A DNA stretch of 43,550 nt from a virus, in UHGV virus genome UHGV-0212646; one strand, given 5' to 3'. The notes beneath the pieces are model-generated. The model made no database searches, had not been told where the DNA came from, and saw nothing but the letters and a program-made list of their open reading frames with translations. Shown piece by piece: positions 4,344-34,348 of the stretch. The stretch's first letter is position 1, and every line of letters begins with the position of its first letter. The translations under genes were made by a program, and so were the position numbers.

Positions 4344-4487
4344 ATAATAGAGAAAAACCAGCCCCTGCGCCAACAGGAACGGCTTTAAATTAAAGAAAGT
4401 AATCGGAAAAGTAATGTATTGAATCGCCTCTGGCGTTTTAATAAAGTAAACCAACGATTAGTGTTTTTACAGAATGGTGGTGACCTA

Positions 4488-4724
4488 TTGGAAATACAAT
4501 ATTCTAAACAAGCAATCAAATTTTTAAAGAAACAAGACCTGCCGACCAGAAAGCGTATCATAACTGCGATCAATGCACTTCCTGCCGGAGATGTAAAATC
4601 TTTGCAAGGACGCTCTGGATACCGCCTCCGGATTGGCGACTATAGAGTAATTTTCGATAAAGAAGGAAATATTCTCTATATTGAAAAAATTGATAACCGC
4701 GGACAAGTTTATAAAGGAGTGTGA
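4488..4724 (+). CDS. type II toxin, RelE/ParE family
   Basis: GGTGGTGA SD, then TTG at 4488. Product MEIQYSKQAIKFLKKQ...SGYRLRIGDYRVIFDKEGNILYIEKIDNRGQVY matches RelE/ParE core motifs. Confidence 0.8.
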   Translation: MEIQYSKQAIKFLKKQDLPTRKRIITAINALPAGDVKSLQGRSGYRLRIGDYRVIFDKEGNILYIEKIDNRGQVYKGV

Positions 4725-4993: not shown

Positions 4994-5032
4994 AAAAACC
5001 GCCCGGTGTTACCAGCACCGAACGGCTTTCAC
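4994..5032 (+). terminator. imperfect hairpin after the TA operon
   Basis: aaaaaccgcccggtgttaccagcaccgaacggctttc. Confidence 0.3.
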
Positions 5033-5167
5033 ATAGATTCTCTTGCCGGATACTCCAGCCATGATAAATCCAGACCAAACATCTGAATTATATCATTTCT
5101 GGTACATCCTGGCAAGGGGTGTATTTTTTACACCCATTTTTCATACAATCCACAAGGAGATGATATA

Positions 5168-6646
5168 ATGCCGCCATTATCCACCAGTAATTCACAGACT
5201 TTGGAGATCGGCGCCGCCTACATCCGCGTCAGCACCGACGATCAGACAGAGCTTTCCCCGGATGCCCAGCTGCGTGTCATTCTTGATGCCGCCAAAGCGG
5301 ACGGGTTCGTGATCCCTAAAGAATATATCTTTGAAGAGAAGAAAGGCATATCCGGCCGGAAGGCTGACAACCGCCCGGAGTTCCAGCGTATGATCGCTAT
5401 TGCCAAGTCTCAGAAACCCGCTCCCTTCAAACGGCTGTACCTCTGGAAGTTTTCCCGATTCGCCCGGAATCAGGAGGAAAGCACCTTCTACAAGGGGATC
5501 TTACGAAAAAAGTGCGGAATCGAGATCAAAAGCATATCAGAGCCCATTATGGACGGAATGTTCGGCCGACTGATTGAAACGATTATCGAATGGTTTGACG
5601 AATACTATTCTTTTAACCTGTCCGGGGAGGTCATGCGCGGCATGACAGAAAAAGCCCTCCGGGAAGGCTATCAGACCTCCCCTTCTCTGGGATACAAGGC
5701 CGCCGGCGAGGGCAAACCATTTCTCATTGACGAGATGACTTACCCGATTGTGGAGTATATCTTCCGTACCTATCACGATGGCCGGGATATGACTGCCACT
5801 GCAAGGGCCGCCAACGCCATGGGCTACCGAACCCGCCACGGCAATCTCTTTGATCGTCGGGCAGTTTACCGCATTTTAACGAACCGTTTTTACAATGGAG
5901 AGGTTGTCTGGAACGGGATCACCTTTCAGGGATCGCATGAAACCCGCCCCGCCGTAACCTCCATTTACGAGAACGTCCAAAATCGGATAACATCTGAATA
6001 CCGCCCCCTCAAGCGCCGCGAGGCCTCTGCTAACGCGCATTGGCTGTCAGGGCTTTTAACCTGCAGCGTCTGTGGCAGCAGTCTGGGCTTTAACCGCTCC
6101 AACAATCAGAAAAAGCGTCCTGACTTCTTTCAATGCTGGAAGTACGCCAAGGGCGTCCACCCTGGTTCCTGCTGCGTATCTGCCCGGATTGCAGAGCAAA
6201 CCGTGCTGAGTTCGTTGGAAAATGCTATGGGGCAGAACTATCTTGAGTATGAATATATCCCGAAAACAGCTGTGGAAACACACGGAGAGGAGCTGGCTTT
6301 AAAAGAGGCTTTGGATCGGATCGCCATCAAAGAGCAGCGCATCCGGGAGGCATATGAAAATGAAATTGATACCCTGGAAGAATATAAGCAAAACAAAATC
6401 CGTCTGAATGTCGAACGGGAGCAGCTGACCGCCGCACTGGAACAACTTCGTCAGAAGATCCAGCAGTCCACATCCGCGCCGCCCAGTCAGGCCGAGGTCA
6501 TGGCCAAAATCTCCTGTGTGTATCAGGTGCTTTCTGATCAGGAAGTCGATAACGAAACCAAAGCCAATGCCCTCCGAGCCATCTGTAAACAGATCGTTTT
6601 TGACCGTGAAACCAGACGTTTTATCTTTTATTACTACACATCATAA
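5168..6646 (+). CDS. int: large serine recombinase (phage integrase type)
   Basis: Resolvase catalytic N-terminal domain (AAYIRVSTDDQ...), recombinase domain, Cys-rich zinc ribbon (CSVCGSS...CWKYAKGVHPGSC), and a C-terminal coiled coil. AAGGAGA SD. Confidence 0.9.
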   Translation: MPPLSTSNSQTLEIGAAYIRVSTDDQTELSPDAQLRVILDAAKADGFVIPKEYIFEEKKGISGRKADNRPEFQRMIAIAKSQKPAPFKRLYLWKFSRFARNQEESTFYKGILRKKCGIEIKSISEPIMDGMFGRLIETIIEWFDEYYSFNLSGEVMRGMTEKALREGYQTSPSLGYKAAGEGKPFLIDEMTYPIVEYIFRTYHDGRDMTATARAANAMGYRTRHGNLFDRRAVYRILTNRFYNGEVVWNGITFQGSHETRPAVTSIYENVQNRITSEYRPLKRREASANAHWLSGLLTCSVCGSSLGFNRSNNQKKRPDFFQCWKYAKGVHPGSCCVSARIAEQTVLSSLENAMGQNYLEYEYIPKTAVETHGEELALKEALDRIAIKEQRIREAYENEIDTLEEYKQNKIRLNVEREQLTAALEQLRQKIQQSTSAPPSQAEVMAKISCVYQVLSDQEVDNETKANALRAICKQIVFDRETRRFIFYYYTS

Positions 6647-6682
6647 GTTATTGCATTACGGGCCACCGGATAGCAATAACTT
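6645..6682. repeat. perfect 10-bp inverted repeat AAGTTATTGC-N18-GCAATAACTT abutting the int stop
   Basis: Seen directly in sequence. The AT-rich arms and 18-nt spacer are atypical for an intrinsic terminator, and the scale fits a serine-integrase att/binding site. Confidence 0.35.
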
Positions 6683-6728
6683 ATAGTGTTGTGAGTAAGT
6701 GGAGACAAAAAAAGGTTTTTATAGAATA

Positions 6729-6757
6729 TTGCATTTAGGAATTGCGTATGATATAAT
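6729..6757 (+). promoter_or_regulatory. promoter TTGCAT-N17-TGaTATAAT for sRNA-A
   Basis: Near-consensus -35, 17-nt spacer, extended -10. Confidence 0.6.
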
Positions 6758-6764
6758 GCCTGTA

Positions 6765-6840
6765 GGCAATAAAGGATATAGTTGTTCCATAGTGAGCGAC
6801 AACAAAAAACCCGGAGGTGTGCAAGACCTTCGGGTTTTTC
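6765..6840 (+). ncRNA. candidate antitoxin sRNA-A (RNA II-like) of a par/Fst-like type I TA locus
   Basis: Runs from its own promoter to the shared bidirectional terminator. Carries the direct-repeat segment ataaaggatata...ttccatagt, which is complementary to the toxin start region. Confidence 0.5.
6810..6839. terminator. bidirectional intrinsic terminator shared by sRNA-A and toxin-A mRNA
   Basis: cccggagg-tgtgcaaga-ccttcggg with T-runs on both strands. The stem covaries with copy B. Confidence 0.7.
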
Positions 6841-6891
6841 TATTCCTATTTTTCGGAGTGGGAAGGCTTAACCCCACAGGCTAGTTACCGA

Positions 6892-6978
6892 TTACTTATC
6901 GCCGTTTAACCATTTGATGATGTAGTGGCAAGCTACACCAGCCGCAACAGCGACGATAAAGGATATAATAAATTCCAT
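6892..6978 (-). CDS. 28-aa hydrophobic peptide, Fst/Ldr-like type I toxin candidate (copy A)
   Basis: GGGAGGTG SD, 6-nt spacer, ATG. Product MEFIISFIVAVAAGVACHYIIKWLNGDK: a TM helix followed by a charged KWLNGDK tail. The 5'UTR contains CGCCTCCCT, which can pair with the SD. Confidence 0.6.
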   Translation of the reverse strand: MEFIISFIVAVAAGVACHYIIKWLNGDK

Positions 6979-7212
6979 AGTAAGCACCTCCCTTCCTTAC
7001 CAGTATAGGAGGCGGTAACATCAGCATTATAGCACACTCATATCATCTCTGCTACTTCTTTTTCGACAATCTCCCCTATTTTTTACTTTCCCAGCCCCGG
7101 CCACAGCAGCGCCCCGTCCTGACTGGGCGTCAGTCTAACAGAATAAATCGACATCTAGATTCAAAGGATAACAATACATTCTTCCTTCTGTGGCGGAAGC
7201 TCCCACAGTACC

Positions 7213-7875
7213 TTAACCCGCCAGCATCTTCGTCGAGTTCTCCTGGATGAATCCCTTGATCTGGTCATATCCCCAACCGCAGCTTATAAGGCTACTCACC
7301 AGCATCTCCATGGATTCAATCTGTTTCAGTTCATCCGCTGTCACATATTCCCGAATACTTTCTTTCCTCTTCACCCCATACTGCTCCTGCAGTTCCTTCA
7401 TGGTCTTTCCGAAGATGGTCTTGTAGATAAGCTTGGTGTAATTGGGATACATGAATTTCTTATGGGGACTGTCAGTCACTTTCATTTTTATGGTATCGGT
7501 CAGGATATGGCGGACAATAATTCCCTTGTCCCTTTCAATCTGCCACTGTTGCCGTTCTGTATAGATTCTCTTGAGTTCTTTTTCCATAGCATTGAAAGCT
7601 TTGATATAGTCCAGTTTCCATCTTAAAGCTTTCTCGCCTGTAAATCCCATAGCAAGTAATGAAAATCCATCTCTGTCCATTTCATACATAGGATATTCTT
7701 TTCCACGGTTTTTGTATGTAGTCAGGGTGAAAAAACTGGCTGCCGAATTTTCGGCCGTGAGATTTCTAATAGCGTCCAATACATGCCTGTGTTCTTTCTC
7801 AAAATGTTCTGCCACTTTAAGGCTTGTGGTAATCAATCTTTCTTCATATCTTTTCCCGGTAATTTCTACTAACAT
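7213..7875 (-). CDS. phage regulatory protein Rha
   Basis: N-terminus TSLKVAEHFEKEHRHVLDAIRNL is the Rha family signature. GGAAGGA SD. Confidence 0.8.
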   Translation of the reverse strand: MLVEITGKRYEERLITTSLKVAEHFEKEHRHVLDAIRNLTAENSAASFFTLTTYKNRGKEYPMYEMDRDGFSLLAMGFTGEKALRWKLDYIKAFNAMEKELKRIYTERQQWQIERDKGIIVRHILTDTIKMKVTDSPHKKFMYPNYTKLIYKTIFGKTMKELQEQYGVKRKESIREYVTADELKQIESMEMLVSSLISCGWGYDQIKGFIQENSTKMLAG

Positions 7876-7971
7876 AAACTACATCCTTCCTATGCGTTTA
7901 TTTTTCGTACAATAAAAGCCCTGGGAAACATCCCAAGGCTGAACATTCCATATTCACTTGTTTGATCCGGT

Positions 7972-8763
7972 TTAAAACTCGCCCGGCCCCTGTACCCCGC
8001 TGGCGTCAGTTACATACAAGGCGCATTCCAACGGGTGGCCTGCCGCCGGCTCAAAGTAATACCATTTCCCATCGATCTGATGCCAGTCCGTTAATGCGTA
8101 GCCATCCTGGTTAAAATAATACTTGTGATGGTTAATCACCTGCCAGCAGGACTTATAATAGGTGTGGGGCGTGTCTGCGTACCACCATCCGTTACTGTCA
8201 TGGTGCCAGCCTAATACGTATTCTGATTGGCTGACAATCGACCAGTCCGGCAGCCCGTAGCCAAGAATTTTCCCATAAGACCGGCTGTAAGCCTTCCGGC
8301 ACACCCCGCCGCCGTTTTCAATCACACCGGATGCACCGGACGTATTGCCCTCAATGGTCTTGATCCGCGTTGCCGTCACCTCTGTAACGATCCCTGTATG
8401 ATAGGCTCTCTGGCCGTTGGTAAAGAAGATCACTGCCCCAGGCTCCGGCACCGCGGCCCACCGGCCTGCCTTTTTAAACTGGTTGACCCCTGTGGGGCAA
8501 TAATGGTACAGGCTGCCTCCCAGAAGTTTCTTAGCCTCCTCAAGCCCAAATGCCTGCACAAATACCTCTGATACGAACATGGCGCACCAGGGCTGGGCCT
8601 GCAGGTTCTGACCGGTATGTATCTTATAGTCCCTGGCAAAGCAGGTGAAATTGCCGCTGCCGGCATTGGCCGTAAAATCATCCAGCTGGGCGTTGCTTTT
8701 CTTTTCCAGATAGCCGTCCCAATGGGCGGTCTGATCAATGAGTTTCTTTACTGCGTTTTCCAT
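7972..8763 (-). CDS. endolysin: CHAP/NlpC-P60-type peptidase domain plus C-terminal cell-wall-binding (choline-binding-type) repeats
   Basis: ATG at 8763 follows a GGAGG SD. Catalytic Cys (PWCAMFVSE) and His (AYHTGIV). Repeats GWHHDSNGWWY..., KYYFNQDGYALTDWHQIDGKWYYF. Confidence 0.8.
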   Translation of the reverse strand: MENAVKKLIDQTAHWDGYLEKKSNAQLDDFTANAGSGNFTCFARDYKIHTGQNLQAQPWCAMFVSEVFVQAFGLEEAKKLLGGSLYHYCPTGVNQFKKAGRWAAVPEPGAVIFFTNGQRAYHTGIVTEVTATRIKTIEGNTSGASGVIENGGGVCRKAYSRSYGKILGYGLPDWSIVSQSEYVLGWHHDSNGWWYADTPHTYYKSCWQVINHHKYYFNQDGYALTDWHQIDGKWYYFEPAAGHPLECALYVTDASGVQGPGEF

Positions 8764-8826
8764 ATGTCTTTGCCTCCAAATAAAAAAGCCCGGTACAAAA
8801 CCGGACAAAAATCATTTTCAGGTATC

Positions 8827-8855
8827 TTGCTTTTAAAATCTGCATATGCTATAAT
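8827..8855 (+). promoter_or_regulatory. promoter TTGCTT-N17-TGcTATAAT for sRNA-B
   Basis: Same architecture as the copy A promoter. Confidence 0.6.
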
Positions 8856-8861
8856 GCCAGT

Positions 8862-8937
8862 AGGCTAAACGATAAAAGTTGTCCATTTCAGACAGCAAAA
8901 ATGAAAACCCCAAGGACCGCAATTCCTTGGGGTTTTC
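8862..8937 (+). ncRNA. candidate antitoxin sRNA-B
   Basis: Carries the direct repeat aaacgataaaagttgtccatttcagaca, whose near copy (rc) spans the SD/start of toxin-B. Ends at the shared terminator. Confidence 0.5.
8908..8936. terminator. bidirectional terminator, copy B
   Basis: ccccaagg-accgcaatt-ccttgggg plus T-run. Two compensatory base-pair changes relative to copy A. Confidence 0.7.
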
Positions 8938-8980
8938 TATTCCGTTTTTATGGTGGCTTAGACCATAGGCTGGTTACCGA

Positions 8981-9067
8981 CTATTTGTCGCCGTCCAACC
9001 ATTTGTTGATGAGGTGGCTAACCACACCAGCCGCAACGGCAACAATAAACGATAAAAGTGTATCCAA
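8981..9067 (-). CDS. 28-aa hydrophobic peptide, Fst/Ldr-like type I toxin candidate (copy B)
   Basis: GGGAGGTG SD, 6-nt spacer, TTG. Product MDTLLSFIVAVAAGVVSHLINKWLDGDK. Confidence 0.55.
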   Translation of the reverse strand: MDTLLSFIVAVAAGVVSHLINKWLDGDK

Positions 9068-9183
9068 TTCAGACACCTCCCTTCTGTCACCAGATTCGGA
9101 GGCGGTAACGTTAGCATTATAGCACAGCTGCAGTTATGCCGCAATCAAAATATAGACCTCAGGAATCCCCTGGGGCCTGTCTG

Positions 9184-9499: not shown

Positions 9500-9679
9500 C
9501 TATTTCTGTCTGCTTTTCTCTGTTTGAACGCCAAAGTAGAACCCCACAATCATCGTGAAGATTGTAAGGTATTCCTGCCCGGAAATTTCCCCAGTGCAGG
9601 TCAGACCCACGAATCCCGCAGTCAGCGCCAGAGTCATGATCGACTTAACATCGATCAGCTTAGCCAGTTTCTCTTTCAT
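9500..9679 (-). CDS. holin (59 aa, two TM helices)
   Basis: GGAGGTG SD, 6-nt spacer, ATG at 9679. Product MKEKLAKLIDVKSIMTLALTAGFVGLTCTGEISGQEYLTIFTMIVGFYFGVQTEKSRQK. Below the ORF-track length cutoff. Confidence 0.7.
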   Translation of the reverse strand: MKEKLAKLIDVKSIMTLALTAGFVGLTCTGEISGQEYLTIFTMIVGFYFGVQTEKSRQK

Positions 9680-34078: not shown

Positions 34079-34114
34079 GGAACGTCTGGGTGGAGATCCC
34101 TAAACCAGGCTAAC

Positions 34115-34186
34115 GGATCCTACAGGAATCGAACCTGTGACACGGTGGTTAACAGCCACCTGCTCTGCCAGCTGAGCTAAGGATCC
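34115..34186 (-). tRNA. tRNA-Asn (anticodon GTT), phage-encoded, no encoded CCA
   Basis: Cloverleaf hand-folded: acceptor GGATCCT/AGGATCC, D-stem GCTC/GAGC, anticodon stem GGTGG/CCACC with loop CTGTTAA, T-loop TTCGATT. Confidence 0.8.
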
Positions 34187-34348
34187 ATAAGGGGAGCGTC
34201 CAGCCCTGATCCGGAACCAGAGCCAGACGATCCGGCCGCGGGGCTGTGACACCCGGCGGCCGACTGGGGCTAAGTGCAAGCCGTCGGCTGTATGCCTTTG
34301 GCTTCGGATTTTATTATAAAACGACTTTTCCGACATAAACGACCTTTT

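Follow-up and report, generated by a model that had tools for sequence, protein, structure and literature searches.

The stretch of DNA analysed here, called the window below, is the whole 43,550-nucleotide (nt) sequence of the virus genome UHGV-0212646, and the element in question lies at 6729-7034, beginning about 60-80 bp downstream of a serine-recombinase integrase gene (5168-6646). A reading made without database searches (the sequence-only reading) had placed a par/Fst-like type I toxin-antitoxin locus there, and all of the elements that it listed were recovered at, or within a few bases of, their proposed positions. The locus is a convergent pair composed of a gene for a toxin messenger RNA (mRNA) on the minus strand and a gene for a small RNA (sRNA) on the plus strand, with a common bidirectional terminator. 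It is very probably a par/Fst-family type I toxin-antitoxin cassette of a Lachnospiraceae (Enterocloster-like) prophage. The features of this cassette (copy A) are as follows, with SD standing for the Shine-Dalgarno sequence, ORF for open reading frame and UTR for untranslated region.

6729-6757, plus strand: antitoxin sRNA promoter, TTGCAT, 17-nt spacer and extended -10 TGaTATAAT, directed at the toxin gene
6764-6841, plus strand: predicted antitoxin sRNA (RNA II analogue), ~78 nt, ends inferred
6769-6793, plus strand: sRNA-side direct-repeat blocks, DRa-like (6769-6780) and DRb-like (6785-6793)
6805-6839, both strands: bidirectional intrinsic terminator, an inverted repeat with 14-nt arms (6805-6818 / 6826-6839), 93% complementary
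6798-7019, minus strand: predicted toxin mRNA (RNA I analogue), ~222 nt, from the RF02442 alignment and the fold
7026-7034, minus strand: toxin promoter, extended -10 TGcTATAAT, with a weak -35 in copy A
7013-7019, minus strand: extreme 5' end GUUACCG, 5' strand of a long-range helix (5'-UH analogue)
7008-7014, minus strand: anti-SD CGCCUCC, paired with the SD in folds
6985-6992, minus strand: SD GGGAGGUG, 6 nt upstream of the ATG
6892-6978, minus strand: toxin ORF of 28 amino acids (aa), MEFIISFIVAVAAGVACHYIIKWLNGDK, from ATG at 6978 to the stop codon at 6892
6956-6981, minus strand: toxin-side direct-repeat blocks (6956-6967 and 6973-6981), the sRNA target, covering the start codon (6976-6978) and codons 1-8
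6884-6890, minus strand: CGGUAAC, 3' strand of the long-range helix, 1 nt past the stop codon
6858-6877, minus strand: conserved 3'UTR hairpin, stem GUGGG/CCCAC and loop of the UUAAGCC type, seen in the fold of either copy

The sRNA promoter has the hexamer, spacer and extended -10 element ascribed to it previously, but its description as near-consensus did not hold, since the -35 element agrees with the consensus in TTG only. The pattern TTG-N17-TGnTATAAT occurs four times in the 43.5-kb window against 0.05 matches expected, and three of the four are promoters of cassette A and of a second cassette, copy B, described below. From the position of TGcTATAAT at 7034-7026, the 5' end of the toxin mRNA would likely fall at ~7019, with an RNA beginning GUUACCGCCUCC; in relatives, TGnTATAAT is kept upstream of the GUUACC 5' end. 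The 28-aa ORF with a strong SD 6 nt before its ATG is as it had been described. The inverted repeat lies between an A-run and a T-run, an arrangement that would allow it to terminate both transcripts, in agreement with the terminator claimed earlier, and a terminal hairpin followed by a U-run appears in the folds of both strands. The two RNAs overlap at ~6800-6841 (~40 nt) and, being read from the same DNA, are perfectly complementary there. Directly after the sRNA -10 element of both copies (6758-6767, 8856-8865), the motif GCCnnnnGGC is almost invariant among related loci, with its first GCC expected upstream of the transcription start, and a compensatory change to GTCnnnnGAC was seen in five or six genomes (L203, L210, L257, L267, L278). 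A trans contact between AGGC at the sRNA 5' end and AGCCU in the toxin 3'UTR was considered and rejected, as the change of AGGC to AGAC in the sRNA was not followed by the mRNA motif.

The recognition between the two RNAs is the first line of evidence. The DRa-like block, ATAAAGGATATA, is found at 6769-6780 and 6956-6967 (two matches in the window against 0.01 expected), and the DRb-like block, TTCCATAGT, at 6785-6793 and 6973-6981, the latter spanning the start codon. Two blocks of the toxin start-codon region are therefore repeated in the 5' part of the sRNA, and the RNAs are complementary there, as the sequence-only reading had concluded from these repeats. The window itself offers a comparison in the form of a paralogous cassette, with the following features.

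8827-9144, both strands: paralogous copy B, in three blocks (repeat families D1-D3) with 73-87% identity to copy A
8827-8855, plus strand: copy B sRNA promoter
~8862-8939, plus strand: copy B sRNA
8903-8937: copy B terminator
9109 to ~8896, minus strand: copy B toxin mRNA
9067 to 8981, minus strand: copy B ORF, MDTLLSFIVAVAAGVVSHLINKWLDGDK, from a TTG at the position equivalent to the copy A start to the stop codon
9144-9116, minus strand: copy B toxin promoter, with TTG present at -35

The GTG start that an ORF finder gives for copy B falls within the SD. Copy B has an internal direct repeat of its own, TAAACGATAAAAGT, at 8866-8879 and 9046-9059 (an exact 14-mer, 0.00 expected), which differs from that of copy A, so that sRNA and target have changed together. 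When duplex energies were predicted between the first 48 nt of the sRNA and the -12 to +33 region of the toxin ORF, the RNA-RNA prediction that the sequence-only reading had suggested as a check came out in its favor, with -42.7 kcal/mol for sRNA A on its own target against -22.4 kcal/mol on that of copy B; the corresponding values for sRNA B were -42.2 kcal/mol on its own target and -15.8 kcal/mol on that of copy A. The terminators of the two copies differ as well. Given these distinct recognition blocks, energies and terminators, copies A and B are predicted to act independently, without cross-reaction. Tandem cassettes about 520 nt apart also occur in the related loci L097, L052 and L061 (IMGVR_UViG_3300006141_000489 and relatives), like Fst-A/Fst-B in Streptococcus pneumoniae.

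Locus by locus, the sRNA and start-region blocks co-vary in the relatives also. In 70 distinct sRNA/target pairs from viral contigs and plasmids, the mean predicted energy was -39.4 kcal/mol for cognate and -20.1 kcal/mol for non-cognate duplexes, and for 58 of the sRNAs no target paired more stably than the cognate one. Because this set had been picked by the sRNA-promoter pattern, the test was repeated on 70 genome loci picked by the peptide only; a direct repeat of at least 10 nt between the start region and the locus's own downstream region was present in 62/70, against 3.4% of non-cognate combinations, and an extended -10 element stood at the corresponding place on the antisense strand in 65/70. 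Few parts of the mRNA alignment are as variable as the sRNA target, which runs from the SD spacer over the first codons. The sRNA of copy A (-28.2 kcal/mol, z -4.6) is predicted to fold into a single-stranded 5' tail, a small hairpin with the anti-start-codon in its loop, and the terminator hairpin. Its predicted length of ~78 nt is close to the ~75 nt forecast from the sequence; for 75 distinct relatives, the median is 75 nt, and 69 of them are predicted to form the two hairpins. The loop of hairpin one holds the start-codon complement in 34 of the 46 relatives where this complement can be located exactly.

The second and third lines of evidence come from the toxin mRNA, the copy A form of which has a fold of -69.4 kcal/mol (z -2.8). 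In the minimum-free-energy (MFE) folds of both window copies, nt 1-6/7 pair just past the stop codon (7019-7013 with 6890-6884 in copy A), and the next bases, CGCCUCC, pair with the SD. An SD-sequestering pairing in the 5'UTR had been proposed beforehand; the pairing itself is borne out by the predicted fold, but the string quoted for it, CGCCUCCCU, has one C too many, the true one being CCGCCUCCU. The long-range helix, which was absent from that reading, is the counterpart of the "upstream helix" in par RNA I. In an alignment of 89 relatives, 91% of the cells of this helix are paired and four of its seven pairs are changed on both sides (A-U 60 / G-C 24; C-G 63 / U-A 19; U-A 75 / C-G 5; G-C 56 / A-U 9), whereas sliding the partner by 1-3 columns left 33-55% paired. 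Matched combinations of 5' end and partner include GUUACCG/CGGUAAC, GUUGUCCU/AGGACAAC, GUUGUCAU/AUGACAAC, GCUACCG/UGGUAGC, GUUGCUCA/UGAGCAAC, GUUGCCAU/AUGGCAGC and GUUGCCU/AGGCAAC, and a score of at least 6.5 was reached by 87% of the cognate combinations against 13% of those with a different 5' heptamer. The SD helix (columns 8-12 / 32-37 of alignment A2) is paired in 88.6%, its pair 10-34 being C-G in 45 rows and U-A in 31. Covariation thus gives three independent signals, namely sRNA with start region, 5' end with the post-stop segment, and anti-SD with SD.

With RNAalifold on the MAFFT alignment, only a weak consensus of -8.65 kcal/mol was obtained and the long-range helix was not recovered, since the 3'UTRs of different subgroups are out of register there; the helix was therefore tested by a named structure and by a per-sequence table. 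The same misregistration kept the 3'UTR hairpin from being formally counted; its stem sequences vary among relatives and its loop motif UAAGCC stays. A local 5' hairpin of GUUACC with the GGUAAC beside the SD was rejected as the ground-state structure, being present in the MFE fold of only 1 of the 89 relatives and containing an A.C mismatch in several, and it is possible as a co-transcriptional intermediate. On these folds, the toxin mRNA alone is predicted to be closed by the long-range helix together with the SD helix. A further helix was observed within the toxin coding region (window ~6893-6960, minus strand; A2 columns 76-84 with 124-135), in which codons ~8-11 pair with the last codons and the stop codon and several pairs are changed on both sides, for example, G-C 39 / A-U 18 / U-A 9.

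The hallmarks listed for par-like systems are convergent promoters, a common bidirectional terminator, direct repeats giving the sRNA complementarity to the initiation region, an intramolecular stem over the SD (5' stem-loop, 5'-SL) and a helix over the extreme 5' end (5' upstream helix, 5'-UH) (Weaver 2020, PMC7472228), and all five of these structural features are present in cassette A. Together with homology to the Rfam family RF02442 and a peptide profile match specific to Fst/Ldr, they uphold the par/Fst type I interpretation of the sequence-only reading.

The peptide has the layout expected for such a toxin. Peptide A has an N-terminal acidic residue, a hydrophobic helix with AxxxG, KWL and a charged tail, that is, in MEFIISFIVAVAAGVACHYII-KWL-NGDK, a hydrophobic transmembrane helix with Trp at its C-terminal edge and a charged tail. 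In the alignment of 46 relatives, K22, W23 and L24 are invariant, and the likeness to Fst/Ldr claimed earlier is reflected in this invariant Trp, in the helix and tail, and in a profile-profile match. The products are 27-32 aa long, and 64 distinct peptides have in common x5-S-[FL]-(hydrophobic)3-[AST]-V-x-A-G-V-x-C-H-Y-I-I-K-W-L-D-G-D-K. The start codon stands at one position after the SD in 89 distinct toxin mRNAs (ATG 47, TTG 22, GTG 20). In the relatives' alignment, codon position 2 has an entropy of 0.35 bits against ~0.8 for positions 1 and 3, which is the pattern expected when hydrophobic residues are swapped for each other. The helix motif is AVAAG (AxxxG) in the window copies and TxxxG, SxxxG or SxxxS in relatives, and hhalign sets AxxxG on the PxxxG of Fst/PepA1/LdrD and KWL on xWL. 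The hhalign probabilities were 97.6% to the peptide of the RF02442 consensus, 85.5% to the Fst/PepA1/LdrD alignment and 67% to LdrD alone, against 0.2-0.6% to the unrelated type I toxins TisB, Hok and SprG1 (Hok 0.6%); the comparison sequences were entered by hand, not from database records, and caution is needed with such short transmembrane peptides. In 32-aa variants (L019, L025, L031, L039, L064, L104 and others), a four-residue C-terminal extension, ...DGDHKDNK, was observed; the added codons (AAGGACAAC, K-D-N) contain the segment that pairs with the mRNA 5' end, so that the same bases code for the tail and close the mRNA.

Homology at the RNA level was obtained with RF02442 (SpF66), which aligns full length to 8893-9109 of copy B at 40.9 bits (E 1e-7; gathering score 42). 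Among the 15 related loci scanned, 11 align full length at 32.4-45.9 bits, three of them above the gathering score, and the RF02442 consensus encodes a peptide ending in CKWLDGKE. F66 has been mapped in S. pneumoniae TIGR4 at 2086087-2086325, between SP2168 and SP2169. We take these two genes to be fcsR and adcA. Fst-A and Fst-B lie between fcsR and adcA, with Fst-B toxic and a 65-75-nt antisense RNA over its 3' end, and the alignment figure of the same work already has a Clostridium bolteae sequence (Fozo et al.). The D39V annotation gives these pneumococcal loci as Fst-family toxin/antitoxin, and a 2025 survey gives the same annotation for the neighboring F67. The position of F66, the position of Fst-A/Fst-B and the D39V annotation lead to the conclusion that RF02442 is almost certainly the pneumococcal fst toxin mRNA, with the toxin RNA of the window as its homologue. 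A literature search on "SpF66" returned only papers on a malaria vaccine of that name.

The architecture is conserved in six aligned loci, and more than 150 distinct related loci keep it while their repeat blocks change. Back-translated peptide patterns identified 182 relatives in IMG/VR that were confirmed by tblastn, and such patterns identified at least 375 in a one-genome-per-species set of bacterial genomes, nearly all in Lachnospiraceae (Enterocloster, Blautia, Dorea, Mediterraneibacter, Roseburia, Hungatella and others); a DNA pattern of the sRNA promoter plus the KWL codons matches at least 118 viral contigs. Additionally, blastn placed the cassette on the 225-kb Clostridium perfringens plasmid p21-D-5b and on plasmids of 3.7-7 kb from Mediterraneibacter gnavus, Waltera intestinalis and uncultured bacteria; on none of these is anything annotated at the cassette, as seen in four plasmid records. 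The 3.7-7 kb plasmids have replication and mobilisation genes only, without lysis genes, and on several the cassette is the sole accessory-looking element. Such unannotated relatives of the cassette abound on the phages and small plasmids of gut Lachnospiraceae. Par-like loci in general are common in Firmicutes, commensal Clostridia among them, where they are carried by phages, islands and plasmids (PMC7472228). Most IMG/VR matches lie within ~2 kb of a contig end, in agreement with the place of copy A beside a recombinase gene. The prophage of Enterocloster alcoholdehydrogenati C5-48 (L201, contig 23) is 98% identical to window 6660-7173 and 7962-9176, taking in both cassettes and the CHAP lysin, which indicates that the window comes from a closely related prophage; it is without the Rha gene between the two copies, the gene between them differing from that of the window, and its integrase side is different.

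The following sequence of events can be proposed for the cassette. A weak extended -10 promoter would give the ~222-nt mRNA for the 28-residue membrane peptide, which, by analogy with the family, would be toxic at the membrane. The free mRNA would be closed, with its first 7 nt paired with the 7 nt past the stop codon and the adjacent CGCCUCC paired with the SD. A stronger convergent promoter would produce the ~78-nt sRNA, which would end at the same terminator and be complementary to the mRNA both at that terminator and, via the direct repeats, from just 3' of the SD through codon ~8. First contact could be made through the complementary terminator, or through the free 5' tail and loop of the sRNA, after which the initiation region would be covered, and pairing over the start codon would block ribosome loading. 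As in the family, the sRNA is expected to decay faster than the mRNA, so that loss of the element would release toxin translation.

A number of points weigh against this interpretation as a whole or in its parts. RF02442 aligns full length to copy A (6794-7019) at 19.7 bits only (E 0.08), far below the gathering score of 42. The profile search suggested by the sequence-only reading failed, in that no curated Pfam model for Fst or Ldr toxins (PF13955 / PF13940) and no NCBIfam model matched either window peptide, and among 46 relatives Pfam gave three weak Fst_toxin and two Ldr_toxin matches; the positive controls Fst and PepA1, likewise entered by hand, scored 22.8 and 24.3 bits, under the curated 36-bit cut-off. 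A profile search of the Protein Data Bank sequences produced no match. With no recognition by curated models, family membership rests on the RNA homology, the profile-profile comparison and the architecture. In place of the canonical P/D/S/TxxxG motif, the window copies have AxxxG and the plasmid clade has SxxxS. MFE folding gives the long-range helix in 39/89 relatives only, and this helix is therefore supported by covariation, not by thermodynamic prediction. The YUNR U-turn is found in the terminator loop of 12/75 relatives, about what chance would give (the copy A loop, CUUGCAC, includes CUUG, and that of copy B is without YUNR); the U-turn motif is not present in all par homologues (PMC7472228). 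Finally, the transcription start sites and 3' ends are inferred, with toxicity, differential decay and role taken from the family, and the most likely role, post-segregational killing that would stabilise the prophage or plasmid, is a reading of context, drawn from the tiny plasmids that carry the cassette as their only accessory-looking element.

The alternatives differ widely in weight. That the promoter-, terminator- and repeat-like elements are a chance assembly within an AT-rich intergenic spacer is so improbable as to be negligible. Short two-copy repeats are often chance matches, and a generic promoter/terminator scan missed all four elements and found nothing significant in 6600-7250, which is accounted for by a -35 with only TTG and by A/T runs that lengthen the terminator stem; but chance would give 0.01 matches for the exact 12-mer repeat and 0.00 for the exact 14-mer, a diverged paralogue with compensating repeats lies 2.1 kb away, hundreds of related loci have the same layout, and chance is refuted by the cognate-duplex test, the helix covariation and the peptide-selected genome set. 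Nearly as hard to sustain is the proposal that both transcripts are non-coding regulatory sRNAs with the small ORF untranslated. It would accord with the Rfam class of RF02442 ("Gene; sRNA", "Streptococcus sRNA SpF66") and with the initial description of the pneumococcal transcript as an sRNA for which a Tn-seq screen had given a colonisation phenotype; however, ORF, SD, start position and the 27-32-aa length are kept in 64 distinct peptide variants with invariant KWL and coding-type substitutions, the pneumococcal homologue Fst-B is toxic on expression, and the D39V annotation is that of an Fst-family toxin/antitoxin.

The same type I identity might also serve another job, such as abortive infection, superinfection exclusion or lysis timing for the phage, and this we regard as unlikely, though a good deal less so than the two proposals above. 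Copy B is located between the CHAP endolysin gene and a holin-like ORF and copy A beside Rha, many IMG/VR matches are within 2 kb of a contig end, the usual place of moron or accessory genes, and the peptides have weak matches to a PHROGs holin family (E ~0.1). Those matches, like all others in PHROGs, are insignificant, the cassette is found also on the 3.7-7 kb plasmids that have no lysis genes, and the change of the gene between the copies in the near-identical Enterocloster prophage means that there is no fixed functional partner. Moreover, plasmid stabilisation is the sole verified function in the par family (PMC7472228), and maintenance of the prophage or plasmid by post-segregational killing is preferred here.

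As to the neighborhood, the assignments of the serine recombinase, of Rha (7213-7875) and of the CHAP lysin with cell-wall-binding repeats (7972-8808) were confirmed by Pfam, and the small holin-like membrane ORF at 9500-9679 matched no Pfam family. A 24-nt inverted repeat at 6638-6689 (79% complementary, 4-nt gap) straddles the serine-recombinase stop codon just upstream of cassette A and could be a terminator or a recombinase/att-related site. The fourth match to TTG-N17-TGnTATAAT, at 5115-5087 on the minus strand, is followed ~55 nt downstream by a GC-rich hairpin and U-run (CCGUUCGGUG...CACCGGGCGGUUUUUAUUU), and window 5000-5115 (minus strand), located in the interval from a ParE-family ORF (4419-4724) to the recombinase gene, thus resembles a gene for an sRNA of ~85 nt. 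A tRNA-Asn (GTT) gene is located inside the prophage body at 34113-34187 (minus strand). In other records, 77% identity to the toxin coding region was seen at 2010-2120 of bajarodino virus 68 (L281; PQ006100.1), which has a circular Inovirus-like genome of 7 kb and comes from rodent faeces; this stretch adjoins a coding sequence annotated "DNA binding protein". C. perfringens p21-D-5b has an ordinary tetrahydrofolate riboswitch (L001 2232-2333, 91 bits) upstream of a folate ECF transporter S component, ~450 bp from the cassette.

Most of the exact peptides are missing from a collection of 15 billion proteins, a 32-aa variant is labelled "MAG TPA: toxin [Caudoviricetes sp.]" in NCBI nr, and a literature search on KWLDG with type I toxin found nothing. 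Cassettes of this kind are invisible to standard annotation, yet their occurrences, in Lachnospiraceae species, gut phage contigs and small plasmids, number in the hundreds. Their recognition accounts for conserved "intergenic" blocks beside integrases and lysis genes, flags sequences that are potentially toxic or difficult to clone, and re-labels RF02442 as a toxin mRNA instead of a plain sRNA. For genetically intractable gut anaerobes, they also supply naturally occurring sets of orthogonal sRNA/target pairs and could serve as counter-selection markers. Covariation across the large set of natural variants supports both closed-state helices, and the two-site antisense mechanism proposed for par, with unusual clarity. 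Speculatively, the KWLDGDK/AxxxG clade might be a very large Fst branch, uncharted as a group, that is specialised for mobile elements of gut Lachnospiraceae and whose two hypervariable recognition blocks, together with the terminator, would diversify quickly enough for every element to have a private toxin/antitoxin address. If so, several orthogonal copies would coexist per phage and act, beyond maintenance, in competition between elements by excluding related phages or plasmids.

In comparison with known systems, the cassette belongs to the Fst/par family and is of an ordinary kind, and it leaves the knowledge of how type I systems work unchanged; what goes beyond the textbook is the size of the unannotated clade on Lachnospiraceae phages and plasmids, the clear evidence of orthogonal paralogues in one prophage and the re-reading of RF02442. 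Like par of the Enterococcus faecalis plasmid pAD1 (Fst, RNA I / RNA II), it has convergent promoters, one bidirectional terminator, two direct repeats, an SD stem, a 5'-end helix and a toxin of ~30 aa with a transmembrane helix and charged tail. The similarity to pAD1 Fst is seen at the profile-profile level only (the 85.5% given above), with AxxxG here and PxxxG in Fst. The clade differs from pAD1 par in its acidic or mixed tail, KWLDGDK, in a YUNR U-turn that starts pairing in pAD1 par and is not conserved here, and in the partner of the 5' end, which lies just past the stop codon or, in 32-aa variants, inside the last codons. Direct repeats of par loci are poorly conserved, so that co-resident systems do not interfere (PMC7472228).

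The closest relative found is the S. pneumoniae Fst-A/Fst-B pair (RF02442; F66/F67; srf-27/28 in D39V), for which the match to the toxin mRNA includes the 5' GUUACCG, the KWLDG codons and 3'UTR motifs. The copies are in tandem there, as in the window, but the pneumococcal loci are chromosomal, between fcsR and adcA, and encode a peptide of ~32 aa with DxxxG. In SprA1/SprA1AS of Staphylococcus aureus, SprA1AS overlaps SprA1 at the 3' end, but its action, in trans, is on the initiation region, which the overlap does not include (PMC8594479). This system shares with the cassette an Fst-family toxin (PepA1) and an antisense RNA acting on the initiation region; it differs in its PxxxGC motif, and RNA-level similarity to the cassette was not detected. 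In hok/sok and AapA1/IsoA1, long-distance 5'-3' pairing keeps the full-length toxin mRNA closed, which is a likeness to the cassette. At the same time, their antisense RNAs lie on the 5' side or over the ORF, their toxins are unrelated, and they are activated by 3' processing, to which nothing in the cassette points. The toxins of the Clostridioides difficile prophage type I systems are ~50 aa long and unrelated in sequence, with an antisense overlap that is organised differently. The C. difficile systems are nevertheless like the cassette in being type I modules on prophages of a gut clostridial host, and they are reported to aid mobile-element maintenance (Peltier et al. 2020).

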